Virus record (IMG/VR): IMGVR_UViG_3300032229_000759
Coordinates: 48,255-112,254 of that record
Source: a virus
Direction: 5' to 3' (one strand)
Length of the DNA: 64,000 bases
Of the stretch, positions 15,113 to 64,000 are shown one piece after another (position 1 is the stretch's first letter; the number at the start of each line of letters is the position of its first letter). The translations under genes were made by a program, and so were the position numbers. The notes below the pieces were generated by a model. It was not told the origin of the DNA, made no database searches, and saw nothing but the letters and a program-made list of their open reading frames with translations.

Positions 15113-15140
15113 ATTATAGGAACCGACGGCCAAGCGTCAA
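15113..15140 (-). promoter_or_regulatory. sigma70-type promoter upstream of ssb
   Basis: TTGACG-N16-TATAAT on the - strand. Confidence 0.7.
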
Positions 15141-16762
15141 GTTTTCGGAATATACGTTTTTTCAACTATGAGAGAGTCTCCAGACTTCGATCTGTTACCC
15201 TTTACTATAACTACGTTGCCTTCAAACAACGTATTTCTATATAGTTTGTACGACTCTGGAAAGAAAACAACAGAATCAACAGAGCCTGTGCCGTCACTCA
15301 TTGTTACGAAAGCCATCTCTAGTCCAGGAGTTTTGCCCGACTTTGTTTTAGTAACACTGATGGCTTCTATTTCTCCGCATAATATAAGATTGTCTTTAAT
15401 CATGCCATTCTTAAAATCTTTACACGTAATATTAGTCATACTTATATCATACATGTCTACCTTAGAGCAGGTCATACTGCACCCTAAAGTTTCATCCTCT
15501 ATATCGGATATCCAATCAGGATTATCTTCTAGAGCGTATGGTGGCTTATTGAAATTATTAATTAAGCCTAAAATTATATTTTTACGATTCTTGTTTGATT
15601 TACCATTATGATATAAATCATATAGTGCATCCCCCAAACTTTTGTATTTATGTGTTTTATCTGTGATAAAAGAACATTCTTTTTTAGTTAGTTCTGACAT
15701 TAAATTAAATTCAAATAACATAGAAGATCTATTTTTATTGAGATAAGAAAGAGCTCCTGCTTGTATGAGAGCTTTTGCCGATGTAGAATTAATGTTTAAT
15801 AATACTTTCATCAGCATATCTATCCATGTCATAAGATCAAAATCTAAAAATTGTTCATCTTTTAATTTAATGAGTTTGTCGAATACGGACTTACCGAAAC
15901 CTTTAATATCTGTTAGTCCAAAATAAATTTTTTCATTCTTTAATATAAAATACTGATTCATGTTTCTAATGTCTGGCAGCCGCACAGAAACATCCATCTC
16001 ATTAGCATTCTGTACTAATTCCTTGATTTCTGCTTTTGGGTCTATTTTATCTTTAGCAAATCTCAAATAGGCCGCAAAAAAAATTCTTGGAAAGTGAGCT
16101 TTTGTGTAAGCTGATAAATAACTATTAACAGCATAACTAACCGCATGACTTTTATTAAAGGAATATCTTTGAGATTTTTCTATCCATCCGAAAATTTCTT
16201 CTGCTTGTGACGATGATACTAGATTTGCTTTTTGTGAGCCCTCTATAAATTTAATTTTAATTTTAGCCATTTCTTCTGGTTTTTTCTTACCGATGGCCTT
16301 ACGCAACATGTCTGCTTCTTGCAAATTAAACCCGGCTACAACTCTGGCAATTTCCATCGCCTGTTCTTGATAAATCATCTCTCCGTATGTAGTTTTTAAA
16401 ACAGGTTCTAAAACTGAGTGGTAATAATCCACTGATTCTAGTCCATTCTTTTTATCTATATAATGATTAGAAACTGTTTTTCCATCTCTAACAGCCTCTA
16501 AACATCCGGGTCTCAAAATACTAATAAGAGCAGAAAGCTGCTCCATGTTTTGGGGTTTTAATTTTTTAGCCATAGACTTACCAAGCCTAGACTCTAGCTG
16601 AAAACACCCCTTGGTATTACCGTCTGATATAAGATCCCAAGTTCTTTGACAATCTAGATCAATGTTTTCTATTTTTGGATCAAAAATCAATTGCGTGATC
16701 TTATCTCCATCCAAAGACACATTAAAAGAACATCCGCAAGGATACTGAAATTTTTTCGACAT
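15137..16762 (-). CDS. dnaE: DNA polymerase III alpha subunit, C-terminal half (fingers/HhH/OB)
   Basis: GCFQLES, LRPG, IYQEQ, ADMLRKAIGKK, YSFNKSHA, FGLTDIKG, MAFVTMSD. Confidence 0.92.
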   Translation of the reverse strand: MSKKFQYPCGCSFNVSLDGDKITQLIFDPKIENIDLDCQRTWDLISDGNTKGCFQLESRLGKSMAKKLKPQNMEQLSALISILRPGCLEAVRDGKTVSNHYIDKKNGLESVDYYHSVLEPVLKTTYGEMIYQEQAMEIARVVAGFNLQEADMLRKAIGKKKPEEMAKIKIKFIEGSQKANLVSSSQAEEIFGWIEKSQRYSFNKSHAVSYAVNSYLSAYTKAHFPRIFFAAYLRFAKDKIDPKAEIKELVQNANEMDVSVRLPDIRNMNQYFILKNEKIYFGLTDIKGFGKSVFDKLIKLKDEQFLDFDLMTWIDMLMKVLLNINSTSAKALIQAGALSYLNKNRSSMLFEFNLMSELTKKECSFITDKTHKYKSLGDALYDLYHNGKSNKNRKNIILGLINNFNKPPYALEDNPDWISDIEDETLGCSMTCSKVDMYDISMTNITCKDFKNGMIKDNLILCGEIEAISVTKTKSGKTPGLEMAFVTMSDGTGSVDSVVFFPESYKLYRNTLFEGNVVIVKGNRSKSGDSLIVEKTYIPKT

Positions 16763-16765
16763 ATA

Positions 16766-17455
16766 TTAGGACCCAAAAGAATCTTTAAACTTTATTTTTT
16801 GACTCAGATTTCTGTGCAACTTAAGGAAACGAATTAATATTTCTGCACAATCTTTTACATCTTTTAGAGCGTCGTGAGCCCCTAATTTAGATATGCCTAA
16901 ATAATCTCTAAGAGTATCTAGTGATAAATTTTTGACATCATTATTGTTTTCAAACCAATAAAAGACCAAATTCATAATATCTAAAACATCTCGTGGATAA
17001 AAAATATCTGATCTGTCTTCTTTATTCACATTACCATATTTACGACTCAAGCGATCTATAATAGGCAAATCAAACCTATTGATATTATATCCCGCAGCGA
17101 TAGGAGCGCTGAACTGACTCTTTTTAGATGATCGAGTATGATGCATCATTAAATAATTGGTAAACAATTTCCATGATTGATCTTGTATTGGATATTCTTT
17201 CCACTCAGATAAAATTTGTTCTTTGGTTGATCCTCTGACCTTAGCATGAAAATCCAGAATATCCGTTTCATAAACATAATTATCATTTTTTTCTAACACT
17301 TCTGGCTTAAAAAAGATATTAAATTCTGAATTAGGCACAATTTCCAACTTAATAGGATCAACAATAACAGCGGCTATTTGTACTGGACTACAACCCCTGG
17401 GATCCGAGCCATCAGTTTCAAAATCAAAAACACATATTTTATTATAGTTAATCAT
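16766..17455 (-). CDS. dnaQ: DEDDh 3'-5' exonuclease (DnaQ/epsilon-like)
   Basis: VFDFETDG, AGYNINRFD, AHDALKDV. Confidence 0.85.
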   Translation of the reverse strand: MINYNKICVFDFETDGSDPRGCSPVQIAAVIVDPIKLEIVPNSEFNIFFKPEVLEKNDNYVYETDILDFHAKVRGSTKEQILSEWKEYPIQDQSWKLFTNYLMMHHTRSSKKSQFSAPIAAGYNINRFDLPIIDRLSRKYGNVNKEDRSDIFYPRDVLDIMNLVFYWFENNNDVKNLSLDTLRDYLGISKLGAHDALKDVKDCAEILIRFLKLHRNLSQKIKFKDSFGS

Positions 17456-17646: not shown

Positions 17647-19521
17647 CTATTCTCCTTTATTAAGCATGTCTGTTATTGTCATAATTTTATCCAACATCGC
17701 TACGCCAAGAATATCGAATTTTATAATTCCCAGAGATTCTAGGTCTTGCATCTCCATTCCGGCTATCATCTGATCGTTTTTTGAATCGTATACCATAGGA
17801 CATAGGGTGTTTAGTGATTGGGCACTTATTGCTATGCCAGCGGCGTGTTTGGATTGATTAGACTTGGTGCCCTCTAATCTTATAGCCTGTTCAAATCTTT
17901 TAGCAAGCGGCCCCTGTAGTTCATTATTATCGTCAATATAACACCATTCTTTGAGTTTTTCTGGCTCATTCTCTAAAGCCCACCTAATAATAGAGGCTTC
18001 CCCAGTCTCCTCTTTCATTTCTTGAAGATCGTCCGCTATTTTAGCTTCGTCTGGAATTCCCTTAGTAATTTTATTCATTTCTTCAAATGAGATATTGCCG
18101 TAAACTCTAAGAACATCTTTTATAGCGCCTCGGCCTTTAATAGTATTGAAAGTAATCATTTGAGATACTTTGTCATGACCATAACACGTTTTAATATATT
18201 CAATAATGTTTTCTCTTTTATTGATAGGTACGTCTACGTCGATATCGGGCATGGAAATATGATCTTTACTATTTCTACCAGCATTATAAAATCTATCAAA
18301 TAAAAGATTATACTTTAATGGGTCTATACTGGTAATACCAATAAGATATGAAACTAAACAACCAGCAGCACTACCTCTACCTGGGCCGGGTAGCCAATTA
18401 TTTTTTCTTACATAGTCCACTATATCTTGCACAATTAAAAAGTAACTAGACAGCCCGGCTCCTTGTAGTACTTCTAGTTCATATTTAATTCTATCGACAT
18501 AAGATACTTGTAATTCTTTATCTATGGCTGGCGCTATTTTATTCTTCCATCCGTGGCGACATAGTTCTCTCAAGTATTCATCAGCAGACATATTATTAGG
18601 ACAGGCAAATGGGGGCAGATTTGGCTTACTGAGTATGTTGTATTCTTCGCACATATCAGTTATAATTCTGGTATTTTCTATTTCTTCTTCTGTGTGCAAA
18701 AAATTCATTTCTTCTTGGGATAGTATATGAAAATTATCCGAAGTAAAAAAACAGCCTAGCGGAACTTCTTCGTCATTACTAATTTTTCTGCTAATTTCCG
18801 GAAAAGTTGTTTTAAGATTATTGCATAATAAAACTCTTTGATCCACAGCATCTTCTTTACGACAATAATGGGCGTCTGGGGTGCCGATAATTTTTGTATT
18901 AGTAAGCTTACTTAGCTCTCTAATAGCATCCGTTAAAATAATCTGTAATGGAGTATTTTCTTTATCCATTAATTGGGCTTCTAGAAAGAAATTCTCTTTA
19001 CCAAATACATTTTGTAACTTACCGATTTCTGTTAATCCAACAGTCTTCCAATCGGGTATAAGCTGATTCTCATGTGTTATTTTATCTGCTAAGTAAGAGC
19101 CTAGATGGCCACAAAACCCAATAATATTGCCAGTTAATAATGAGCCCAAAGTTTCTAAATTAATTCTAGGTTTGTGATAGAAAAAATCTGGACGATTACT
19201 TTCTGAAACTATTTTAATGAGATCCTGCCAACCGGCGTAATTTTTTGCTAAAACAAGAAAGTGACTTAGGTTTTTGTTTTCTTTAGATTGATCTGTAGGG
19301 TCTCCATCACACAAATATAACTCACAACCCAAAATAGGTTTAATATTTTGTTTCTTCATTTCTGCATAGAACTTAACAGCTCCGGCTATATTTCCGTGGT
19401 CTGTTAGGGCACAAGCTGAGGCCCCTATCTCTATGCATCGTTGTGCAATATCTTTGGGTTGTGGTAGGCCGTCCAATAAGCTGTATGTAGAGTGACAATG
19501 GAGGGGATTATAGGTTTTCAT
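17647..19521 (-). CDS. dnaE: DNA polymerase III alpha subunit, N-terminal half (PHP + palm/thumb)
   Basis: HCHSTYSLLDG, TDHG, GPGRGSAAG, MPDIDVD, KHAAG, KFDILG. Confidence 0.93.
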   Translation of the reverse strand: MKTYNPLHCHSTYSLLDGLPQPKDIAQRCIEIGASACALTDHGNIAGAVKFYAEMKKQNIKPILGCELYLCDGDPTDQSKENKNLSHFLVLAKNYAGWQDLIKIVSESNRPDFFYHKPRINLETLGSLLTGNIIGFCGHLGSYLADKITHENQLIPDWKTVGLTEIGKLQNVFGKENFFLEAQLMDKENTPLQIILTDAIRELSKLTNTKIIGTPDAHYCRKEDAVDQRVLLCNNLKTTFPEISRKISNDEEVPLGCFFTSDNFHILSQEEMNFLHTEEEIENTRIITDMCEEYNILSKPNLPPFACPNNMSADEYLRELCRHGWKNKIAPAIDKELQVSYVDRIKYELEVLQGAGLSSYFLIVQDIVDYVRKNNWLPGPGRGSAAGCLVSYLIGITSIDPLKYNLLFDRFYNAGRNSKDHISMPDIDVDVPINKRENIIEYIKTCYGHDKVSQMITFNTIKGRGAIKDVLRVYGNISFEEMNKITKGIPDEAKIADDLQEMKEETGEASIIRWALENEPEKLKEWCYIDDNNELQGPLAKRFEQAIRLEGTKSNQSKHAAGIAISAQSLNTLCPMVYDSKNDQMIAGMEMQDLESLGIIKFDILGVAMLDKIMTITDMLNKGE

Positions 19522-24617: not shown

Positions 24618-25017
24618 TTTTAATTCTGTCCTTCCATTCATCTAGTTTTTCGTGAAACGGCAACTCTATATAGCTGATACTATTGACATGGCACCACTCT
24701 TGTTTTTCTTGGTCTCTTTTTTTGTGTTTGATAAAACCTAATAAATTATTATGATAAAAAGGCACAAACTTATAGTGTTGTTCACCATGTACTTCTATGC
24801 ATCTCTTTAAAAGGGGTATATAAAAATCTAAGTATAATGTTTCAGACCTTCTTAAGGGTATCGCTACTTCTTCCAAAACCTGCATAGTTGGAAATAGTTC
24901 ATGTATTAAATTTCTAGCGGTTAGATGAAATGAAGATTTATTTTTTATACTTCCATGGGCGATACCGCCTATTAATTGCCATTTTACGGTATTGCCATCT
25001 AAATCTTTGACATTCAT
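24598..25017 (-). CDS. DUF559/Vsr-like PD-(D/E)XK endonuclease
   Basis: LDFYIPLLKRCIEVHGEQHY, RDQEKQEWC. Confidence 0.7.
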   Translation of the reverse strand: MNVKDLDGNTVKWQLIGGIAHGSIKNKSSFHLTARNLIHELFPTMQVLEEVAIPLRRSETLYLDFYIPLLKRCIEVHGEQHYKFVPFYHNNLLGFIKHKKRDQEKQEWCHVNSISYIELPFHEKLDEWKDRIKNEHQNS

Positions 25018-26033
25018 TTGATACCCATGGTGCTTTTAACTTCTTTTAATAAGCTATGATAAACTTTGGGATTATCTACTAAATATTGTCTTAGCTTTTC
25101 TGTTCCTTGAAATTTGGGTTTGTCTTCTACAGAAGTAAGCGTGTACCATGCTCCGCCCTTATGTATGAGTCCAATATCCACAGCCAACATCAATAACTCC
25201 ATTTGCTTATCTATGCCTTGTCCATATCTGATATAGCTGGTTATAGTACCGCCAGGAGAACCTAAAGCAGAACAAATAACTTGCCATTGTATTTCTTGTC
25301 CAATTTGCTGACCATCTTCTGATGAACCAACTTTCCACGCTTTATGAAATTGTGCTCTCAGTTTAATATCTGTTTGGTAGGCAATAGCTTGTCCACTTTT
25401 TTCTTTCCATTCAACGTGACCAGTGCCGGGATTGCCCATTAAATGAGTAATACCAATAACAATATTTCTATTTACCGGAATAACGTTTGCTACTTTACGA
25501 CAAAACTTAGCTAATAATTTAGCTCCGTCTGCTCTTTGCATCTTATTCATATCCGATGTAATCTCGGTTTCTGTACATAAAGCAGAATACGAGTCTATGA
25601 TTAAAACTGATCCTGGTATTTCGTTTATAATTCTTTCGGCGATCTGTAGATATTCTTCTGCGTGTAATATTTTTCCTTGTTGAGATCCTATGACATGAAA
25701 ACGCTCTAGATTTAATCCTGGTATACCTTCCAAATCTCTCTTTTTTAATCTACCTTCTATATTTAGGTAATACACTTCTCTGCCTTCTTTAAAGCCAGCG
25801 TAAGCATATTCGGGTTTTTGTGCTGTTGCGGCAAAATCTAATGAGGTTGTGGTTTTTCCACACTTAGGTTGCCCTGTTAAAATCATGAAACTTCCTTCTG
25901 GTACTCCTCCATTTAAGATAATATCAAGAGAAGGACTTACTGGGATTGTAATAAGTTTTTTATCAACAACGGCACTAGCAGTTAGCATAATTTCTGTGCC
26001 GAAATTTTTAATTACGTCATCTTTTAAACTCAT
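25014..26033 (-). CDS. recA: RecA/UvsX-like recombinase
   Basis: SLDIILNGGVPEG, GQPKCGKTT, IIDS, GLIHKGGAWY. Confidence 0.88.
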   Translation of the reverse strand: MSLKDDVIKNFGTEIMLTASAVVDKKLITIPVSPSLDIILNGGVPEGSFMILTGQPKCGKTTTSLDFAATAQKPEYAYAGFKEGREVYYLNIEGRLKKRDLEGIPGLNLERFHVIGSQQGKILHAEEYLQIAERIINEIPGSVLIIDSYSALCTETEITSDMNKMQRADGAKLLAKFCRKVANVIPVNRNIVIGITHLMGNPGTGHVEWKEKSGQAIAYQTDIKLRAQFHKAWKVGSSEDGQQIGQEIQWQVICSALGSPGGTITSYIRYGQGIDKQMELLMLAVDIGLIHKGGAWYTLTSVEDKPKFQGTEKLRQYLVDNPKVYHSLLKEVKSTMGIK

Positions 26034-47898: not shown

Positions 47899-48567
47899 CT
47901 AAAAGTTTTCAAAAGTGCTATTATTTTGTGTAATCAGCTCTAATCCATTTAATGAGTTTACTTTTAATCCATACAGATTAGCTTTTTTAATGTTCTGAAT
48001 CTGGCTAATATTCCAAATATTGCCGTTGCAGATAATATTAATGGGTACTTTTTTGTTGATAAGGGCGGAAGCTAGGATATTATCGTTGATATCATCTAAA
48101 GCATATCCTGTTGACGGATATATGGTGTTAATATTATGATCAATTAGTATTTGAGCAACTTTGTACAGTAATTCGTATGTAAAAACCCTGTATTCGAGAA
48201 TATATCTGAGTTCTACACTATATTTTTCACAAATTTCTTTATTGTATTTAATATCGTCTCTAAATTTTTCATACTTACGATTACAAAAATTATATGGTTG
48301 TGCTACCACATTAATAATGGTTGCTCCATTTTTTATTGCTGTTTCTATAGCTGCTCCACGAGTTTTAGTATCTAAAATACCAAATGGATAATCTATAGAA
48401 GAAGCTATTTTAATACCAGTAGTTGAACTAGTCAGTGCTTTAACAAGTCTGATCTGCGGAGCGAATACGCCGATAGTGGAGGGCTTAAAAGTTATAGCCT
48501 GCTGAATATTTTTTCTAATTTCATCATCAGATAATGAAATATCATATATGGAATATTCAATAATCAT
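47899..48567 (-). CDS. DeoC (deoxyribose-phosphate aldolase)-fold protein, catalytic residues lost
   Basis: IDYPFG, AIKNGATIINVV, YILE, IYPSTGY; the Schiff-base Lys is absent. Confidence 0.72.
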   Translation of the reverse strand: MIIEYSIYDISLSDDEIRKNIQQAITFKPSTIGVFAPQIRLVKALTSSTTGIKIASSIDYPFGILDTKTRGAAIETAIKNGATIINVVAQPYNFCNRKYEKFRDDIKYNKEICEKYSVELRYILEYRVFTYELLYKVAQILIDHNINTIYPSTGYALDDINDNILASALINKKVPINIICNGNIWNISQIQNIKKANLYGLKVNSLNGLELITQNNSTFENF

Positions 48568-55981: not shown

Positions 55982-56510
55982 AAATAAAAACATTCATATC
56001 GTGCCAAATATCGTTGATTAAACAAGTAATAAAATTCCAGTCTCCACCAGCTAATCCGCTCCCAAACTTAGGTGCATGTATTTCAATACTACATCCATCT
56101 TTCTGTTTTTGCAAGTCTTTGACATATAACTTTACTTGATTCATACAGTATACTAAAGCCCCATAATTCAGAGGTCTTTTATTATTGTGGCTAATAAGTT
56201 TATTTTGAGCAATCATGTTAGCAAAAGTTATACTGTGTCTATATTGCTTATTTTCTTTGACTGTTATAAACTGTGTGTGTCCTAGTTTAGCTTGTTGTCC
56301 AAGTATATGAAAATTAGCTTTTACTTCTGGATATATATTAGCTACTTGACCAGCAAAACCGGCACCAAATGCGTTAACATTATTACAAATATGAGGTATA
56401 ATAACAGAGCATCCAGCGGCTCCAGCATTAATTCTTTCTCTAGTAATATCAAAAATATTATCGTCTTTTATAAGATTAAATATGTTGTTTTGAGATGTTT
56501 TTGTTTTCAT
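55968..56510 (-). CDS. Macrodomain protein (ADP-ribose binding/hydrolase)
   Basis: HICNNVNAFGAGFA, NMIAQ, PKFGSGLAGGDW. Confidence 0.85.
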   Translation of the reverse strand: MKTKTSQNNIFNLIKDDNIFDITRERINAGAAGCSVIIPHICNNVNAFGAGFAGQVANIYPEVKANFHILGQQAKLGHTQFITVKENKQYRHSITFANMIAQNKLISHNNKRPLNYGALVYCMNQVKLYVKDLQKQKDGCSIEIHAPKFGSGLAGGDWNFITCLINDIWHDMNVFIYANK

Positions 56511-56755
56511 ACTTTATCCCATTTATCTAATGGACATTTTTGATCAGCCCATGCTAATTTGTTTAAAAAAACTTTTTTCTGATTTACATTACAACCACAA
56601 ACAAGACACTGACTCTTTTTAGTATCCAACATTTCACACGATTGACATATACTATATCTATGATTGATTATTGCTTGACTAGATTTGGGCAACCCAGCAC
56701 CAACATGAAACCACAAAGACTTCAAAAATGTTTTGACTCTTATTAGAAAGCGCAT
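56507..56755 (-). CDS. DUF6171-like Cys-rich small protein
   Basis: RYSICQSC..CLVCGC..KLAW...CPLDKW. Confidence 0.65.
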   Translation of the reverse strand: MRFLIRVKTFLKSLWFHVGAGLPKSSQAIINHRYSICQSCEMLDTKKSQCLVCGCNVNQKKVFLNKLAWADQKCPLDKWDKV

Positions 56756-56765
56756 AAGATTATTG

Positions 56766-56987
56766 CTATTTTAGTGGAGAAAAATTATTATTAATATCTA
56801 AATGGTATAGCTGCGTAGGCTCTATCATAATAGATCCCAAAAACCATCTGACTAGTCCATCATTTAAACCTAGACACATGTAAGAAGTTTGCTTATTCTT
56901 AGTCTCTCTATAGTCAGAAGAAAGCACATAAAAATAGTTTTGATATGCAAAAGTATCCCCAGCCTCTATTTCCTCAAGATACTTCAT
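56766..56987 (-). CDS. Small hypothetical protein
   Basis: LEEIEAGDTF SH3-like pattern. Confidence 0.55.
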   Translation of the reverse strand: MKYLEEIEAGDTFAYQNYFYVLSSDYRETKNKQTSYMCLGLNDGLVRWFLGSIMIEPTQLYHLDINNNFSPLK

Positions 56988-57162
56988 CTTCCCAGTCTTC
57001 CCATTTTTCTTCCTGTATCATTTCTTCTTTGGCTTTTTTGAACTGTTTTTTCAGTTTTTGGGTATCTTTAAAATCTGATACATTGTCCTTTTTTTTGGAA
57101 AACTTTTGTTCTATATTTTTCCTTCTGTTGTTTTTTCTTCTGTCAAAATCGAAATCATTCAT
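56974..57162 (-). CDS. Small charged hypothetical protein
   Basis: Basic core with EEKWEDWEDE tail; probable ATG 57162. Confidence 0.55.
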   Translation of the reverse strand: MNDFDFDRRKNNRRKNIEQKFSKKKDNVSDFKDTQKLKKQFKKAKEEMIQEEKWEDWEDEVS

Positions 57163-57187
57163 TTTGGAAAACACCCTGTTACGTTTC

Positions 57188-57215
57188 ATAATAGTTAGAA
57201 ATCTGAGCAAGTCAA
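57188..57215 (-). promoter_or_regulatory. sigma70-type promoter
   Basis: TTGACT-N16-TATTAT with upstream T-tract (UP-like). Confidence 0.55.
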
Positions 57216-57286
57216 GAAAAAAAATAAAAAATTGATGCTTGACGCACGATACATATGTTCATATAACTTATGCAGTGGGTTTGATA

Positions 57287-58219
57287 TTATAGAATGGGTC
57301 TTATTATACCATTACCCTCATATGCTTTCATGTCTTTGTATCTCAAATCCTTTAATCTCCATGTCTTTTTAGCAAAGACAGCGATGTAGTCATTGCTAGA
57401 TTTTAGCATATTTTCTAAAGAAGCAAACTTGATTTTCTTAGCATAACTGAGTAAAAGTGCCGCACAACCAACAGCGAATGGAGTAGCCATACTAGTCCCT
57501 GTCATAGAAGCGTAGCCATTGCCGGGTACAGCACTGACTATATCTTCTCCTGGCGCTAAAAAATCCAACTCTTCTCCACAACAACTGAAATCACATAAAG
57601 ATAAATTTCTATCAATTGCTCCTATACTAATTGTGTGTGGGTATTTAGCTGGATACTGTATTCCTGATTCTATGCCGCTGTTACCAGCAGCACAAAAAAT
57701 AATTACATTTTTTTGACAAGCATAATTAATAGCTTTTTCTATGTGAATGGATGGATATTCTGATCCTAGAGACATGGTTAGCATATCGGCTCCGTGGTCC
57801 ACAGCCCACACAATGCCTTCTGCGACATTTTTATTACTTCCAGACCCCTGACCATCAAGCGCTTTAATAGGCATGATCTTGGCTTTAGGAGCAACTCCCA
57901 CCATACCTATGCCATTATTTATGGCAGCTATTGTGGCTGACACATGAGTGCCATGACCATTATCATCTTGTGGGTCTGATTTTTTATCAATAATATTGAC
58001 ACCACTAATTAAATTATCTTTAATATCTTCATGAGTTAAATCGCAACCAGTATCTATTACTGCTACAGTAACATTTTCTCCCTCAGAATATTTCCATTGT
58101 TTGGCAACATCAAATTTTTGAATAGGCCAACTGTAAAACTGTGTAGAGGTTGTTGATAAACCATAAATATCAGTTCTAATATGTGGTAATAATTTACATT
58201 GTTTTCTATTATATAGCAT
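57287..58219 (-). CDS. Subtilisin-family (S8) serine protease
   Basis: AVIDTG, GHGTHV, AAGN, GTSMATP. Confidence 0.93.
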   Translation of the reverse strand: MLYNRKQCKLLPHIRTDIYGLSTTSTQFYSWPIQKFDVAKQWKYSEGENVTVAVIDTGCDLTHEDIKDNLISGVNIIDKKSDPQDDNGHGTHVSATIAAINNGIGMVGVAPKAKIMPIKALDGQGSGSNKNVAEGIVWAVDHGADMLTMSLGSEYPSIHIEKAINYACQKNVIIFCAAGNSGIESGIQYPAKYPHTISIGAIDRNLSLCDFSCCGEELDFLAPGEDIVSAVPGNGYASMTGTSMATPFAVGCAALLLSYAKKIKFASLENMLKSSNDYIAVFAKKTWRLKDLRYKDMKAYEGNGIIRPIL

Positions 58220-58226
58220 AAGTATT

Positions 58227-58997
58227 TTACTCTGATTTAGAGGTGTGTTCTAGGATCCATTTATGGAAATTACTTATTCTAGTATGAGAACTTTCATCAC
58301 TATAACTAGAGTTGGGGCTTCCGTCTTTAGAAAGAACAGCAGAATTAATACCCGCTAATTTACCATCTATAAATAATCCTCCGCCACTATCTCCATTTGC
58401 TATCAAAAATTCTAATTCTGTAATTTTATCTTTATGAGATTTGGATGGAGAACAAATTAATGTGCCTTTTTCTATTTTATCAATAAAATTAGAGCCTGCT
58501 CTTTTTTTATTGTCGCTTAAATTAGAACCAGTATTAAATGTGCCAGTATATCCTAATCCAGCAATACTACAAATTTTACCTTCTTCATCATTATCGCAGT
58601 ATAACTCTGGGAAAAATTTTAAATTAATTGGTTCTGTGGTATATCCTAAAGCAATATCGTGTTGTCCAAAAACACTATTATTATAGTCACTGTGACATAT
58701 TATTTTTTTAATCTCGTATTTTTTATCCTCTACAATAATAAAAGAATATTTTTTTGAGTGTACAACGTGAGCAGCTGTTACAATCCAGCGTGGATTAATA
58801 ACTACTGCTGATCCCATATACTTTTGTTCATCCTCATCTATGCAGCAAATTTTAACTACATTATGAAATTTAGATCCATAAGTTACATATTTATGATCTG
58901 GAGTACCGGGGTCTATTGTTCCGGCTTGTAGACGAAAAGACAATAATGATAATGCTATTACCATACCAATAAATAGCAATCGGTTCATCTGAAACAC
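58227..58997 (-). CDS. Trypsin-like (S1) serine protease with signal peptide
   Basis: TAAHV, HDIAL, GDSGG; hydrophobic N-terminus ending LQA. Confidence 0.9.
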   Translation of the reverse strand: MFQMNRLLFIGMVIALSLLSFRLQAGTIDPGTPDHKYVTYGSKFHNVVKICCIDEDEQKYMGSAVVINPRWIVTAAHVVHSKKYSFIIVEDKKYEIKKIICHSDYNNSVFGQHDIALGYTTEPINLKFFPELYCDNDEEGKICSIAGLGYTGTFNTGSNLSDNKKRAGSNFIDKIEKGTLICSPSKSHKDKITELEFLIANGDSGGGLFIDGKLAGINSAVLSKDGSPNSSYSDESSHTRISNFHKWILEHTSKSE

Positions 58998-59117
58998 CTA
59001 TGGAGGTATTAATTTTAAGGCTTATTTTTTACCTTATTAAAATACACCATAGGGTCTTTATTATCTCTTTATTATGGCTTTTAAAGTTCGGCTTGTCTTC
59101 TTAGATATAGAAAATAT

Positions 59118-59495
59118 TTATTTGCGCATCCACTGCAAGTATTCTTTCATATTCGAAAATCCTCTTTTATGTTTCTTTTCTATGTTATTTTGTATAATAA
59201 TACTGTGTGGGATTAATGATATTTGATATTCTTTCATTAATTCAGGATTAGTATCAGAATCAACAAAACATATAATATAATTCTCAAATTGATCTTCAGA
59301 ATTTTTAATCTCTTTTTCCAATACCTTACAATATTTGCACCAATCCGCAGTAAATATAACTAATAAATTTTTGTGAGCTTGATTAGATTCTATTACAGCA
59401 TCAATCATAGACTCTAAATATACGGGACTTTCTGCATACGTATGATTTATGCCTGATGTCACTACGATGAATAGTAATAATAAAATAATTTTCAT
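59118..59495 (-). CDS. Exported thioredoxin-like protein
   Basis: Signal peptide, FTADWCKYC, IP cis-Pro motif. Confidence 0.85.
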   Translation of the reverse strand: MKIILLLLFIVVTSGINHTYAESPVYLESMIDAVIESNQAHKNLLVIFTADWCKYCKVLEKEIKNSEDQFENYIICFVDSDTNPELMKEYQISLIPHSIIIQNNIEKKHKRGFSNMKEYLQWMRK

Positions 59496-60391
59496 TTCTT
59501 GTAAGCACCTAAAACCCTTCCTTTTTGAGTTCTGACTACGAATCCTTTTCTAACTAAATATGGCTCAATACTATTTTCAATAGTTTCTATAGCAATACCT
59601 GTCATAGAAGATATGCTTTTTAGACCCAAAGGATTGCCGATAGACTTTTGTAATAGCTGTAAATAGATTCTATCATAGTTGTCTAACCCATCGTTATCAA
59701 TCCCTTGATTTTGGAAAATTTCATCTACGCTCATATTTTTTTCAGCATAGTACGCTTTGCAGTTTTTGTACCACAACAATCTGGCATTTAATATACGTGG
59801 TGTTCCTTTGCTTCTGCGAGCAATTTCTGTCAAATCTTCATCATCAATCATTAGTCCGAACTTTGTAGCGTTCAACCTTGCTAGTTTAGCTAGGTCATCT
59901 ACAGCATAAAAACTTAAGTGTTCTTTAATTTGAAATCTATCGTAAAAGGGTTGGCTTAAACTTCCTCCACTGGTAGTAGCCCCCACTAATGTGAACATTG
60001 GTAGTTCTATATTTTCTGGTTTATTTTCTACTACAATAGATAATACAAAATCCTCTATGACCGGATATAGAAATTCTTCCACCAACTTAGGTAGTCTGTG
60101 GATCTCGTCAATGAATAAAACCGATCTTGGTGCTATACCCATTAAGTAAGGCAAAATATTTTTTACACTACGAATATTTGCCCCGTTCACTGTATACAAA
60201 TTAACATTCAACTCCGTAGCAATAGCACTGGCTATGGTAGTCTTACCCAATCCCGGTGGGCCGTCTATTAAAACATGGGGCATCGTAGCATCAGAGTTTT
60301 TACAGCCGCGAGTTAATACTCGTAATCTGTCAACCACATCTGACTGTCCAACAATATCATCGAAGGTACTGGGTCTAATCGCATTTGCCAT
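59492..60391 (-). CDS. ruvB: Holliday junction branch-migration helicase RuvB
   Basis: IRPSTFDDIVGQ, GPPGLGKTT, FIDEIHRL, GATT, DRF, GTPR, EPYL, RTQKGR. Confidence 0.93.
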   Translation of the reverse strand: MANAIRPSTFDDIVGQSDVVDRLRVLTRGCKNSDATMPHVLIDGPPGLGKTTIASAIATELNVNLYTVNGANIRSVKNILPYLMGIAPRSVLFIDEIHRLPKLVEEFLYPVIEDFVLSIVVENKPENIELPMFTLVGATTSGGSLSQPFYDRFQIKEHLSFYAVDDLAKLARLNATKFGLMIDDEDLTEIARRSKGTPRILNARLLWYKNCKAYYAEKNMSVDEIFQNQGIDNDGLDNYDRIYLQLLQKSIGNPLGLKSISSMTGIAIETIENSIEPYLVRKGFVVRTQKGRVLGAYKK

Positions 60392-60773
60392 GTTCTATGT
60401 CTCCAAGTTTATAAGCCAAAGATTTTTTTACTATATTTGCTACGGTGTCATTTTTTTGAATATTACAGGAAGTTATGAGTTGTTGACATTCTTCTAACGG
60501 AAAACCATAGTTTTCTAGGATAGTAATAGCTTTACCTATATTTAGGTTAGATAAGTCTACATCTGGTTTTGTATATTGTCTGTGATATTTGAGCTTAATA
60601 TTTTGTATTTTTTTAACTTTCAGTATGGTTTTACAATCACAAACAACCTTAAATCCTTTAGTTTTAGTTTCTTCTAAAGAAAGCCAATGATTAATGCCGC
60701 AAGCCGGACACTGATACTTAAAATGTATATCTTGGTCAATCGGTTTTAGGTTTTTTATTATTGTCTGGTTCAT
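60375..60773 (-). CDS. Zn-ribbon + RuvA C-terminal (domain III)-like protein
   Basis: CPAC..CDC N-terminus; KAITILENYGFPLEEC...TVANIVKKSL resembles RuvA_C; overlaps the ruvB start. Confidence 0.6.
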   Translation of the reverse strand: MNQTIIKNLKPIDQDIHFKYQCPACGINHWLSLEETKTKGFKVVCDCKTILKVKKIQNIKLKYHRQYTKPDVDLSNLNIGKAITILENYGFPLEECQQLITSCNIQKNDTVANIVKKSLAYKLGDIEHGKCD

Positions 60774-61164
60774 TTTTTATCCAAAATACAAAGTCGTTTT
60801 TCTCGTTGTCAAATGCTGTGTCTAAAATATTCTTGTTTACTAATTGTGCTAAAATATTACTAACTAATCTGCTATTTAATTCTTCCAGAACTTTGTACAA
60901 GATTTCATCTGTAATTTTGAATGATTCTATTTTAGTTTTTGGATTAATACTAATCTTAGTATGATTCCGTATAATTAAAGCGCTTTCATCATGAGATAAT
61001 ACTTTGTCTAGTTCTTCTATTTCCATATCATTTAATACAGATAGTGTGTCGGACAAAGGATCGTCTATTTCATCGTTCATAGTACCAAAGAATTTAAATA
61101 CTAAAGACCTAGCGTGGTCTACGAAACTATCAAAATCTTTGATTAAATACCATTTTTTACTCAT
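60736..61164 (-). CDS. Hypothetical protein
   Basis: ORF in operon. Confidence 0.55.
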   Translation of the reverse strand: MSKKWYLIKDFDSFVDHARSLVFKFFGTMNDEIDDPLSDTLSVLNDMEIEELDKVLSHDESALIIRNHTKISINPKTKIESFKITDEILYKVLEELNSRLVSNILAQLVNKNILDTAFDNEKNDFVFWIKNEPDNNKKPKTD

Positions 61165-61165
61165 T

Positions 61166-61573
61166 TTAATTTAGTATGTCAAACATACCTTTGTAGTAGT
61201 GCGGTTGATTCATAAAATGTACAGCGTGTGATTGTATATGATTAATGTACTGATGTTGTAAGGGATCGAGAATAAAATATTTCTTTTTCCAAACCTGACT
61301 ATTCTGATAGTTACTCCCCAAATACTGGAAGGTTTTATTCTTGCCAGTATTGGAGAAATAACTACTCACAGGAAACGACTCTTTCGGTAAATGACCAATA
61401 TACCACACATTTGGTGAATTTTCAACTAAGCCATCTAGAGCATCATATAATATTTTTCCCCAAGCGTCCCATGCTTCTGGATCAAACTTGAAATAATGTT
61501 TATACTGACTCTCTAAATCATCGTGACTATCATCGTAATCATCGTCGCCATAGTTGTCATATTCTTCGTGCAT
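61166..61573 (-). CDS. Hypothetical protein with acidic N-terminus
   Basis: ORF in operon. Confidence 0.55.
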   Translation of the reverse strand: MHEEYDNYGDDDYDDSHDDLESQYKHYFKFDPEAWDAWGKILYDALDGLVENSPNVWYIGHLPKESFPVSSYFSNTGKNKTFQYLGSNYQNSQVWKKKYFILDPLQHQYINHIQSHAVHFMNQPHYYKGMFDILN

Positions 61574-61579
61574 TTTATG

Positions 61580-62650
61580 TTAACCTATGCAAAATTTATC
61601 ACTAAGTTGAGAAGCAAGGTCTTTAGCCGCACTGGCGAGAAACCGATTGTTGCTAAAGTATAGTGCTGTAGACGCTTGGTTGAGGTACTCGACCACCGTT
61701 TTTAAAAGTTTGGTCTGTGACCCATCAAGGTTTATATCCTCGTCTGAGACAGACTCTAGGGTGTCGTTCTCGTCAACAGGAACCACAGGCATAGGATCAC
61801 CATAAGCCTTTGTATACTTTGTAGCAGAACTGTGCTGCAATTCATTTAGAATCTTTGCAGCAACATCTGCTGATACTGGAACACCAGTTTCATCGGCTTG
61901 CTTATAAGCCTTAGCATACCCCTTATACCATTCATCACTACACTTATCGGGAATTATCTGTAGAGTTGCTGGCTGACCAGTAAGAGCACTCTTAAGATCG
62001 GCCACATTAACTACTTGACCAGTACTGCCGGGAAGCAGACTTGTAAAATACGAAGCCTTCTTTTCCCAGCCTTTACGCCACCAAGTATAAGGAACACGAT
62101 AAATCTGGTTAGGCTTAATTGCTCGCGGATCACCACCAAAATAGTTAACCAGTTTCTTTTGCAGGCCATTCCAGAAAGTTTTATTTGAACCAATCATTTG
62201 ACGACTAGCATCATCAAAAATCCAGTAGCACTGATACCCATTACGAGTATCAACAACCCAACTTGGTTTAACAGGAAAGTTATTGATTTTAGCAAGGAAC
62301 TCTTTCTTTTTCTGCATTACAACACTTGGCTTAAAGTAACTACCCTGATCATCACGACCAGCATCCATGTCGCAAAAACAACAAGTAAACTCTTTAATAG
62401 CGTATAGTTTACGTCCGCCATTTACATAAAAATAAACATCAGAACTATTATTGATATTGGCATGAATGGCCTCGTCAAGAGTATTAGTATGATACATATT
62501 ACTAATCTTTTTACGAGGATTGCCATTATGGCAAAAAATATTATTTTGCTTGAAAGAATTCAAGAAACGATTTCTTTCAATAGTATTACCATTAGCAAAA
62601 ACATTGTTATCATTTGAAAACGGGTTAAATCCAAGAACATCATTGAACAT
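61580..62650 (-). CDS. RepB-type (AEP superfamily) DNA primase-like protein
   Basis: VYFYVN, FCDMD, VVDTRNGYQCYW, DP..IYRVP. Confidence 0.7.
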   Translation of the reverse strand: MFNDVLGFNPFSNDNNVFANGNTIERNRFLNSFKQNNIFCHNGNPRKKISNMYHTNTLDEAIHANINNSSDVYFYVNGGRKLYAIKEFTCCFCDMDAGRDDQGSYFKPSVVMQKKKEFLAKINNFPVKPSWVVDTRNGYQCYWIFDDASRQMIGSNKTFWNGLQKKLVNYFGGDPRAIKPNQIYRVPYTWWRKGWEKKASYFTSLLPGSTGQVVNVADLKSALTGQPATLQIIPDKCSDEWYKGYAKAYKQADETGVPVSADVAAKILNELQHSSATKYTKAYGDPMPVVPVDENDTLESVSDEDINLDGSQTKLLKTVVEYLNQASTALYFSNNRFLASAAKDLASQLSDKFCIG

Positions 62651-62722
62651 ATTAGTTCCAACTTTCCTGTGTACTATCTAGATATTGGGACAGCAACCTT
62701 TACTATCATTAGCAATATCAAA

Positions 62723-62803
62723 AAGATGGTAGAGGAATCGAACCTCTATTGTAGGATAGTAAAAACTATATAGGTACTATCTTACAAGTTCCAAACACCA
62801 CCT
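62723..62803 (-). ncRNA. tRNA-like RNA (acceptor stem + T arm, tmRNA-TLD-like)
   Basis: AGGUGGU/ACCAUCU acceptor with G3.U70; AGAGG-UUCGAUU-CCUCU T arm; 9-nt GG-containing D segment; 13-bp helix in place of the anticodon arm; no CCA. Confidence 0.6.
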
Positions 62804-62816
62804 TGACTATTTAATT

Positions 62817-63686
62817 TTAATAGTTTCCGTAGGGCCCATTGTCCAAATCTGATTCGTCTTCATCCTCTTCTTCATCGTCAAAACTGTTCCAATAAGCATC
62901 ATCATATTCATCATACAGAGCCTCTTCTTCGTCATCATAATCGTCCTCACTAAACTCACTCTTATAGAGAGGCTTAAGAAGTTCACCTTGATACTCGCCA
63001 ACTACTTCATAGCGACAAGTACGAAGTTTTTCACAGTTACAATCATTAGGAACACTAACAACGTCCTTGGGATTAATCTTTACAATCACGATCTTGTCAC
63101 CAGAATCTACGCTACCATAACTAGCAACATAGTTCAAAGCACCAGCATGAAGTCCCTGAGAGCATCCAACACCACGATTATCGTCAACCTTTGCTCGTCT
63201 CATTTCACAAACGCTACCAACACGGTTATCAAATGTGCCAGCGTACTTATCCTTATAATCATTTCGCACAGCCTTATAGGCCAAGAAATGACCATCCTCA
63301 GTAATAGGAAGATACTGATGCTCCAAGAAATCATACAGTTCAGTCTGACTCTGCATACTTGGATTTTCCATCAGATTATCAAGAAAATTAACAAGAGGCT
63401 GAAAAGGCAAGCCCTTGCTCATAAACTCAAGAATACGCTTGCTGATCGCCCCATGAACTTCTTCACCATCATAAAGCACCTGACCATTCTTGACCTCAAC
63501 CCTACCCTGACTAAATGTAGCCACAGCAGTTTGAATATCTACAAGTTCCAGCAACTCATCTTCACTGGCAGATTGCAGACTATCCATAATCAACCTATAG
63601 TTAATATGATCCGGCAATACCTGATGAGCCTTATTCTTAAGGATCAGCGTAAGATTGCCATCAACCCACATAAAAGGAACGCTCAT
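62817..63686 (-). CDS. rIIB: rIIB-like protein
   Basis: LYDFL...LPITEDGHFLAYK, DN.VG..C.M.R..VDDN, CSQGLH, KINPKDVVSVP, KLRTCRYEVV. Confidence 0.85.
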   Translation of the reverse strand: MSVPFMWVDGNLTLILKNKAHQVLPDHINYRLIMDSLQSASEDELLELVDIQTAVATFSQGRVEVKNGQVLYDGEEVHGAISKRILEFMSKGLPFQPLVNFLDNLMENPSMQSQTELYDFLEHQYLPITEDGHFLAYKAVRNDYKDKYAGTFDNRVGSVCEMRRAKVDDNRGVGCSQGLHAGALNYVASYGSVDSGDKIVIVKINPKDVVSVPNDCNCEKLRTCRYEVVGEYQGELLKPLYKSEFSEDDYDDEEEALYDEYDDAYWNSFDDEEEDEDESDLDNGPYGNY

Positions 63687-63711
63687 TATATCTCTCCTGT
63701 TTCCTGTGAAA

Positions 63712-63999
63712 TTAAATTATCGAATTACCAATCAACTCTTTAAACTTATCAACATTATCAAACTTTGTTGACCAAGAACTTTTCTTGCTATAGTAACTAT
63801 TACTAGAACCAAAACTGAGAGGATTAGTTGAACGAAGTTCACGCAAATCGCCTCGACACTCTTGGCTACACACAATATACTTCAGCATCGGCTGTTTGTC
63901 AAGAGCCTCTTTAATACTATTACGCAACTCATCGACTTTTGGAAGTTTATCCTTCAGTGAATAATCTGCCTTGATAAGTTTGGTCATAGATTCTTGCTC
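63712..63999 (-). CDS. C-terminal fragment of a gene truncated by the window, probably rIIA-like
   Basis: Frame stays open to the window edge; immediately upstream of rIIB; YPML-like QPMLKYI motif. Confidence 0.45.
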   Translation of the reverse strand, partial: EQESMTKLIKADYSLKDKLPKVDELRNSIKEALDKQPMLKYIVCSQECRGDLRELRSTNPLSFGSSNSYYSKKSSWSTKFDNVDKFKELIGNSII

Positions 64000-64000
64000 A

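Follow-up and report, generated by a model that had tools for sequence, protein, structure and literature searches.

A zinc-ribbon protein with a RuvA domain III-like C-terminus as a candidate adaptor for a phage RuvB motor

Introduction

How might a RuvB motor be recruited and driven in a phage in which no RuvA was detected? The question is raised by a locus in a 64,000-nucleotide stretch of viral DNA (positions 48,255 to 112,254 of IMG/VR record IMGVR_UViG_3300032229_000759), referred to here as the window, which covers the 3'-terminal 64 kb of a viral contig 112 kb long (CheckV 81%). At this locus three minus-strand genes overlap head to tail: an open reading frame (ORF) for a protein of 142 amino acids, a gene for a protein of 132 amino acids that we call the adaptor, and ruvB, which encodes 299 amino acids; a thioredoxin-like ORF comes next. 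In the RuvAB machine of the textbooks, RuvA recognises the junction and runs the ATPase cycle of RuvB through its domain III. An initial annotation of the window had proposed that the gene overlapping the ruvB start joins a zinc ribbon to a RuvA domain III and stands in for RuvA, and that motor and adaptor form a co-evolved, orthogonal pair. Both ORFs are indeed present on the minus strand, where it had placed them (Table 1).

We find that the C-terminal domain of the adaptor, as judged from sequence profiles and from a structural model, is homologous to RuvA domain III. The locus is read most economically as encoding a RuvB-docking adaptor, and on balance we think it probable that the 132-residue protein serves the phage's own RuvB as a minimal RuvA-like adaptor, in which domain III would dock on the motor and the zinc ribbon would act as an anchor, the whole serving recombination. 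The suggestion of a co-evolved, orthogonal pair fares less well, and the adaptor has been lost repeatedly by related phages that keep RuvB.

Results

Homology of the adaptor C-terminus to RuvA domain III

A scan of IMG/VR with the phage RuvB gave 227 related stretches, of which the best 80 loci (RuvB 72-81% identical) were retained; several complete genomes of 200-238 kb are among the RuvB-related loci. Alignments of the adaptor comprise 35 homologues, with a larger set of 155 family sequences. When a profile of the 35 members is run against all PDB sequences, domain III of T. thermophilus RuvA (1ixs_A, a fragment whose crystals also contained RuvB) comes out on top with an E-value of 0.001, and the 11 PDB matches include the RuvA chains of S. 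thermophilus and E. coli. Scanned singly against Pfam, the members hit RuvA_C (PF07499) more often than any other family (5 of the 35, best E-value 2.7e-4), although all of these matches lie under the Pfam cut-off. A pairwise hhalign comparison, for which the template was a single sequence, aligns adaptor residues 77-120 with residues 158-200 of E. coli RuvA at an E-value of 0.0011 and a probability of 20%.

The structure searches point in the same direction. Foldseek, run against the PDB, lists the RuvA domain III chains 7pbm_H, 7pbl_G, 7x7p_A, 1bdx and 1hjp on top, with TM scores by target of 0.78-0.87 and a root-mean-square deviation (rmsd) of ~1 Å for 7pbl_G and 7x7p_A and 4.2 Å for 7pbm_H; the Foldseek E-values for this domain are all above 0.1. 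In VIA, a Foldseek-independent structure search over 48,161 chains, RuvA domain III takes all five of the leading places (Z 8.1, 7.4, 6.5, 6.2 and 5.7), the best of them with an rmsd of 0.9 Å over 48 residues, and the first generic UBA and CUE domains follow at Z 4.9. A C-terminus unlike the RuvA_C or UBA-like fold, the outcome that would have spoken against the initial annotation, is not what these searches return. The RuvA C-terminal pattern that it had described emerges at the level of profiles and of structure, but not from the single sequence, which matches nothing in Pfam (RuvA_C included) or PHROG; a tblastn search with the adaptor against 50,697 phage records was also empty. The single E-values are modest because the domain is small (only ~48 residues), and we base the assignment to domain III on the agreement between independent tests, together with a gene context that fits.

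The hhalign alignment pairs L86 of the adaptor with L167 of E. coli RuvA, and likewise Y89 with L170, G90 with G171, F91 with Y172, E95 with E176, K116 with R196 and L119 with L199. In the larger family alignment, position 86 is leucine in 89% of sequences and Y89 is kept in at least 90%. In E. coli RuvA the substitutions L167A and L170A abolish RuvB activity in vivo while leaving junction binding unaffected (PMC2628435), and Wald et al. found that domain III binds a hydrophobic surface formed jointly by helix alpha3 of RuvB and the presensor-1 hairpin, acting as nucleotide-exchange factor, ATPase activator and fulcrum (PMC9477746). The positions of the adaptor that correspond to RuvB contacts (L86, Y89, G90, F91 and L119, against L167, L170, G171, Y172 and L199) are conservatively kept, which is not what an orthogonal interface would lead one to expect.

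A basic zinc ribbon in place of the RuvA body

The AlphaFold model of the adaptor (predicted local distance difference test, pLDDT, 78.7 overall) falls into three parts: a four-stranded knuckle domain at residues 17-52 (strands 17-21, 28-32, 42-44 and 50-52; pLDDT 90-97, a range also given by residues 21-60), a low-confidence linker, and three helices at residues 74-122. The zinc ribbon noticed in the initial annotation is well supported, its knuckle strands being present in the model and its four cysteines, in a CxxC...CxC arrangement, being invariant in the 35 homologues and 99-100% conserved in the 155 family sequences. Other invariant positions are Y20, W30, P11, G90 and E95, and L86, Y89, F91 and K116 are nearly so. 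The N-terminal domain carries a net charge of +6 here (family mean +3.5), with six conserved K/R positions. The linker, which is analogous to the flexible linker that precedes RuvA domain III (PMC2628435), ranges from 5 to 70 residues across the family. Among named zinc-ribbon families only generic look-alikes were recovered for the N-terminal domain, all of them sub-threshold (Pfam Zn_ribbon_CSL, Zn_ribbon_5, Zn_ribbon_SprT and DZR; LysW and ZitP), and no adaptor member passes the cut-off of any zinc-ribbon Pfam family. These ribbons have two Cys knuckles on short beta-strands in common with the adaptor, while two traits are particular to the adaptor family, namely an HW motif that follows the first knuckle and a second knuckle of the CxC type.

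The initial annotation was also right that the partner gene lacks OB and HhH domains, and no RuvA body turned up in the contig or in the complete relatives searched. The OB fold of RuvA domain I (PF01330) is absent from the adaptor, where the model has the zinc ribbon instead, and from the contig and five complete relatives; HHH_5 (PF14520), which stands for the two helix-hairpin-helix motifs of domain II, is absent from the adaptor, from the contig that contains the window and from four complete relatives. Pfam models found neither RuvA_N nor RuvA_C anywhere in the contig, RuvC was not found there either, and the five complete relatives gave neither RuvA_N nor RuvC; the search for a true ruvA and ruvC beyond the window, which the initial annotation had called for, thus recovered neither gene. 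The controls were positive in the expected bacteria.

The gene is closely joined to ruvB. A GGAG lies 9 nucleotides ahead of the ruvB ATG, both within the last adaptor codons, and this overlap with an embedded Shine-Dalgarno sequence suggests translational coupling. A terminal G-x-x-N-G tail is common to many of the adaptor homologues (60375-60404 on the minus strand here, and the equivalent positions in related loci), and it may be set by the nucleotide constraint of the embedded ruvB Shine-Dalgarno sequence and start rather than by protein function.

Table 1. Features of the ruvB locus and the recombinase gene, with positions in the window.
Feature	Position	Strand	Basis
Adaptor ("mini-RuvA"), 132 amino acids: zinc ribbon followed by a linker and a domain resembling RuvA domain III	60375-60773	-	ORF; homologues before ruvB
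N-terminal basic zinc-ribbon domain of adaptor, residues ~8-64; C22, C25, C45, C47	60582-60752	-	Cys conservation; AlphaFold model
Flexible linker of adaptor, residues 65-74	60552-60581	-	Low pLDDT; length variable across family
RuvA domain III-like three-helix domain of adaptor, residues 75-123	60405-60551	-	Profile and structure searches
Adaptor/ruvB junction: GGAG 60401-60404, ruvB ATG 60389-60391, 17-nucleotide overlap	60375-60404	-	Read from sequence
ruvB, 299-amino-acid AAA+ motor: large ATPase, lid and C-terminal winged-helix domains	59492-60391	-	Pfam and PDB alignments
RuvB's presensor-1 beta-hairpin	60002-60043	-	Aligns with E. coli RuvB L135-L152, with a 4-residue tip gap
Conserved 142-amino-acid gene, overlapping the adaptor start by 38 nucleotides; possible third component	60736-61164	-	Homologues at related loci
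UvsX-like recombinase	25014-26033		Window

The RuvB motor and its presensor-1 hairpin

The phage RuvB is genuine, with its ATPase motifs intact. The Pfam domains RuvB_N (6.8e-46, 156.4 bits), AAA_lid_4 (7.5e-08, 32.5 bits) and RuvB_C (4.6e-18, 65.4 bits) all exceed their gathering thresholds (27, 27 and 24.7 bits, in that order), and matches to solved RuvB chains in the PDB have E-values of at most 1.8e-64. Alignments with E. coli and S. thermophilus RuvB show Walker A, Walker B, sensor 1, Arg finger and sensor 2 as well as the basic hairpin of the head domain, the aligned motifs being GPPGLGKTT, LFIDEIHR, GATT, DRF, GTPRI and RTQKGR; ~20 N-terminal residues of E. coli RuvB are not present in the phage protein. 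A tblastn search with RuvB against deposited phage records gave matches that were all below 60% identity, the top ones (~37-41%) being mostly unannotated records, and these were not used.

The hairpin is of particular interest, as residues L135-L152 of E. coli RuvB form its RuvA-binding element (PMC2628435; for the role of the hairpin see also PMC9477746). That the phage hairpin is about four residues shorter, as the initial annotation had it, is confirmed by the alignments, in which the tip shows a 4-residue gap against both E. coli and S. thermophilus RuvB; the strands are conserved with bacterial RuvB and the difference is confined to the tip. Among the phage relatives the tip is either short or carries a charged insert of 5-7 residues, and each form occurs with and without an adaptor. 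We considered the shortening as a signature of co-evolution and rejected this, the tip length being variable in the family and independent of adaptor presence. A co-evolved, orthogonal pair is unsupported because the tip length is not constant, because the adaptor has been lost repeatedly (4-6 times, see below), and because the contacts are conserved on the adaptor and in the hairpin strands alike.

Conservation and repeated loss of the adaptor

Adaptor presence was scored in 78 of the related loci. In ~65 of these a homologue lies just upstream of ruvB or overlaps it, with overlap or abutment being the usual arrangement, and this adjacency argues that the pairing of adaptor and ruvB is not due to chance. 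The homologues at related loci are 130-170 amino acids long and only 32-47% identical to the query, compared with 72-81% for RuvB. An exhaustive profile search for the adaptor family (E-value at or below 1e-3) gave 540 representatives at the 50% identity level, of which the 150 listed are 118-184 amino acids long; no fused or longer forms appeared among proteins of 269-2000 amino acids, although this is weak evidence. Searches for related loci that started from two divergent members of the family added no locus to the set.

At 13 of the 78 loci the adaptor is missing, and there the 142-amino-acid gene abuts ruvB with a gap of ~50 nucleotides. A copy relocated within the genome does not explain these cases and was rejected, as three complete adaptor-less genomes contain no match anywhere at E-values of up to 1. 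On a maximum-likelihood tree of RuvB, absence of the adaptor amounts to 6 changes, at least 4 of which are forced by well-supported branches. Since the tree demands 4-6 changes, the adaptor was lost repeatedly with RuvB retained, and RuvB is thus evidently workable without it, perhaps with host RuvA.

A 142-residue protein linked to ruvB

The gene upstream of the adaptor has a homologue in all 80 loci in which it was scored, adaptor-less ones included, and is thus more tightly tied to ruvB than the adaptor itself. The AlphaFold 2 model of its product is confident (pLDDT 82, predicted template modelling score 0.70), and a convincing match to its fold was found neither by structure search (Z below 5) nor by Foldseek (E-value above 0.1) nor in the ESM Atlas (chance level). 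There are weak hints of a winged helix, namely a MarR-like match with an E-value of 1 (profile against PDB) and an APAF-1-like winged-helix domain with an E-value of 0.0067 (Pfam). The MarR-like similarity sits in the C-terminal half of the protein, and an invariant NDFxFW motif lies near the C-terminus. We also asked whether the protein could be a RuvA body in disguise, and rejected this, as its predicted secondary structure is not that of an OB plus HhH arrangement and there is no fold match.

Replication and recombination genes of the phage

The search for RecA-family genes covered the contig of the window and four relatives and gave a match in all five, and Endonuclease_7-family genes occur in all four complete relatives searched. 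In addition to the UvsX-like recombinase, the window encodes a DnaB-like helicase, a primase, a DNA polymerase, an exonuclease, an HNH/endo VII-like gene, a ribonucleotide reductase and PhoH; from this gene content we conclude that RuvB belongs to a phage that brings its own machinery for recombination and replication. The DNA polymerase (PHROG 405) is split between 17647-19521 and 15137-16762 on the minus strand, and a 229-residue match to a polymerase exonuclease subunit lies between the two parts at 16766-17455.

Around the ruvB module a number of further genes were noted, all on the minus strand. The 356-residue protein encoded upstream at 61580-62650 has no Pfam match and weak PHROG matches to DNA polymerase/primase (E-values 6e-5 and 3e-3), and from these it may be a divergent primase-polymerase. 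Further upstream, a 289-residue protein (62817-63686) gives a strong match (PHROG 609, 2e-71) to the C-terminal portion of families of rIIB-like lysis-inhibition proteins and is far shorter than the profiles. The gap at 62651-62816, in which the initial annotation had seen a transfer RNA (tRNA)-like element, contains a hairpin at 62730-62748 that was flagged by a terminator scan and whose stem-loop resembles a tRNA T-arm (GGTTCGATTCC); ARAGORN found neither a tRNA nor a transfer-messenger RNA over 56000-64000. Immediately downstream of ruvB, at 57287-59495, are genes for a thioredoxin-like protein (Pfam Thioredoxin, 6.8e-14), a trypsin-like protease of 256 amino acids and a subtilase S8 of 310 amino acids. 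By eye, the translations of the thioredoxin-like and trypsin-like ORFs have hydrophobic starts resembling signal peptides; such secreted-looking redox and protease genes are uncommon for a phage replication region. A promoter and terminator scan for operon boundaries gave chance-level results.

Discussion

Proposed mechanism

From homology, fold and the conserved contact residues, we suggest that domain III of the adaptor would dock on the hydrophobic surface that helix alpha3 of RuvB makes together with the presensor-1 hairpin, and that the docked domain would recruit RuvB and act on it as nucleotide-exchange factor, ATPase-activating factor and fulcrum, as in bacteria. More tentatively, the basic zinc ribbon on its flexible linker might take the place of RuvA domains I-II as the anchor; its target would most likely be DNA, with the co-conserved 142-residue protein as the second candidate. 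Held at this fixed point, RuvB would be able to pull on duplex DNA. The gene context is consistent with a module that would serve branch migration or fork remodelling in the recombination-dependent replication of the phage, working beside the UvsX-like recombinase and an Endonuclease_7-family (endo VII/HNH-like) nuclease. As related phages keep RuvB without the adaptor, we take the adaptor to be an accessory factor, which would enhance or target the motor, and not an obligatory subunit. The adaptor or the phage RuvB may also engage in cross-talk with host RuvA or RuvB.

A number of observations weigh against a RuvB-docking adaptor. The gene is missing from 13 of the 78 loci, has no copy anywhere in three complete genomes, and was lost several times over on the RuvB tree. 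The protein is probably a monomer, with no obvious way to reproduce the tetrameric RuvA platform that holds the junction open. Its zinc ribbon resembles generic families only, and DNA binding by this ribbon is a prediction. The similarity to domain III consists of modest profile E-values (1e-3) for a very short domain, with the single sequence drawing a blank in Pfam, and the interaction between RuvB and the adaptor is itself a prediction from homology and fold.

Alternative explanations

A more far-reaching version of the docking adaptor is that the zinc ribbon re-aims RuvB away from Holliday junctions, for instance to a fork, to the end of a duplex, to a specific site in the phage DNA, or to a complex of protein and DNA that the 142-residue protein defines. 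We regard this as doubtful; if it were true, the phage would possess a modular pairing of motor and adaptor that arose in nature, an AAA+ DNA translocase having had its targeting head swapped, and the adaptor-less lineages would be those falling back on host RuvA. It is unlikely, in our view, that the adaptor instead tethers RuvB to a protein that recognises the substrate, be it the 142-residue protein or another replisome or recombination protein, in a three-part machine. Zinc ribbons often serve as protein-interaction modules, and the 142-amino-acid gene is found at every one of the 80 loci, overlaps the adaptor gene by 38 nucleotides, stays beside ruvB after the adaptor has been lost, and encodes a product with weak winged-helix-like hints. 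On the other hand, the model of this protein is without a convincing fold match, and at adaptor-less loci its length is unchanged and no compensating domain III has been acquired; tethering through it is a prediction from gene context.

The fast evolution of the adaptor (32-47% identity, against 72-81% for RuvB) and its dispensability in some lineages are what one would expect of a conflict gene, and could point to a host-directed decoy, which would bind the host's RuvB or compete with the host's RuvA and in this way inhibit or hijack host RuvAB. Complementation between RuvA and RuvB across species is known (PMC9477746), which makes binding to host RuvB plausible, and the contact residues of the adaptor are conservative with respect to bacterial RuvA. 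Nonetheless we judge a decoy to be improbable, as the gene always lies directly before the phage ruvB and is apparently translationally coupled to it, never occurring elsewhere in the complete genomes, and as a decoy would need neither the conserved basic zinc ribbon nor the linker. Least of all do we favour the view that the C-terminal domain is a generic UBA-like three-helix bundle, functionally unrelated to RuvB and adjacent to it by accident. The domain is small, the Foldseek E-values (above 0.1) and the hhalign probability (20%) are poor, and UBA and CUE domains do appear lower in the same structure list; against this, domain III of RuvA from several species leads both the profile and the structure searches, well over generic UBA, RuvA_C is the commonest Pfam match among the members, and a ruvA-ruvB-like gene order is kept in dozens of diverged loci. 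Such a coincidence therefore seems very improbable.

Significance

If the docking adaptor is correct, the family splits the two roles of RuvA in a natural way, with domain III retained and the recognition body exchanged for a zinc ribbon of 50 residues, in an abundant group of uncultured phages with genomes of 200-240 kb. It would offer a minimal system in which to ask what domain III alone does to RuvB under different anchoring, as well as an example of an AAA+ DNA motor that can be retargeted by domain swapping, and the repeated loss of the adaptor provides natural comparisons with and without it. To the initial annotation our analysis adds this repeated loss, the universally linked 142-amino-acid gene, and a hairpin length that is unlinked to adaptor presence. 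In the literature we found no description of a phage protein combining a zinc ribbon with RuvA domain III; no Pfam or PHROG family covers the adaptor, and BFVD holds no two-domain look-alike.

Comparison with known Ruv systems

According to a review of jumbo phages, the RuvC of these phages works uncoupled from a RuvB-like ATPase (PMC7824862); in contrast, the lineage described here has RuvB, with no RuvC or RuvA detected. With the bacterial RuvA-RuvB systems of known structure (E. coli; T. thermophilus, 1IXR/1IXS; S. thermophilus/S. typhimurium, 7PBL series; P. aeruginosa, 7X7Q) the phage locus shares the order of partner gene then ruvB, a RuvB with all three domains and the presensor-1 hairpin, and a partner with a terminal domain III fold on a flexible linker, including the hydrophobic L..(L/Y)G(Y/F) motif and a C-terminal L. 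It differs in the body of the partner: whereas the OB fold (domain I) and HhH domain II of bacterial RuvA (TIGR00084) tetramerise and hold the Holliday junction, the phage adaptor has a basic four-Cys zinc ribbon. The phage system also differs from bacterial RuvAB in having no RuvC, a shorter RuvB hairpin tip, ~20 fewer N-terminal residues in RuvB, and a partner that is dispensable in some lineages. The closest parallel is the isolated domain III fragment of RuvA (1IXS, 7X7P), which binds RuvB without the junction-binding body and is the best match to the adaptor both in sequence and in structure. This fragment is a laboratory construct, whereas in the adaptor domain III is naturally fused to a zinc ribbon, as a conserved gene family.

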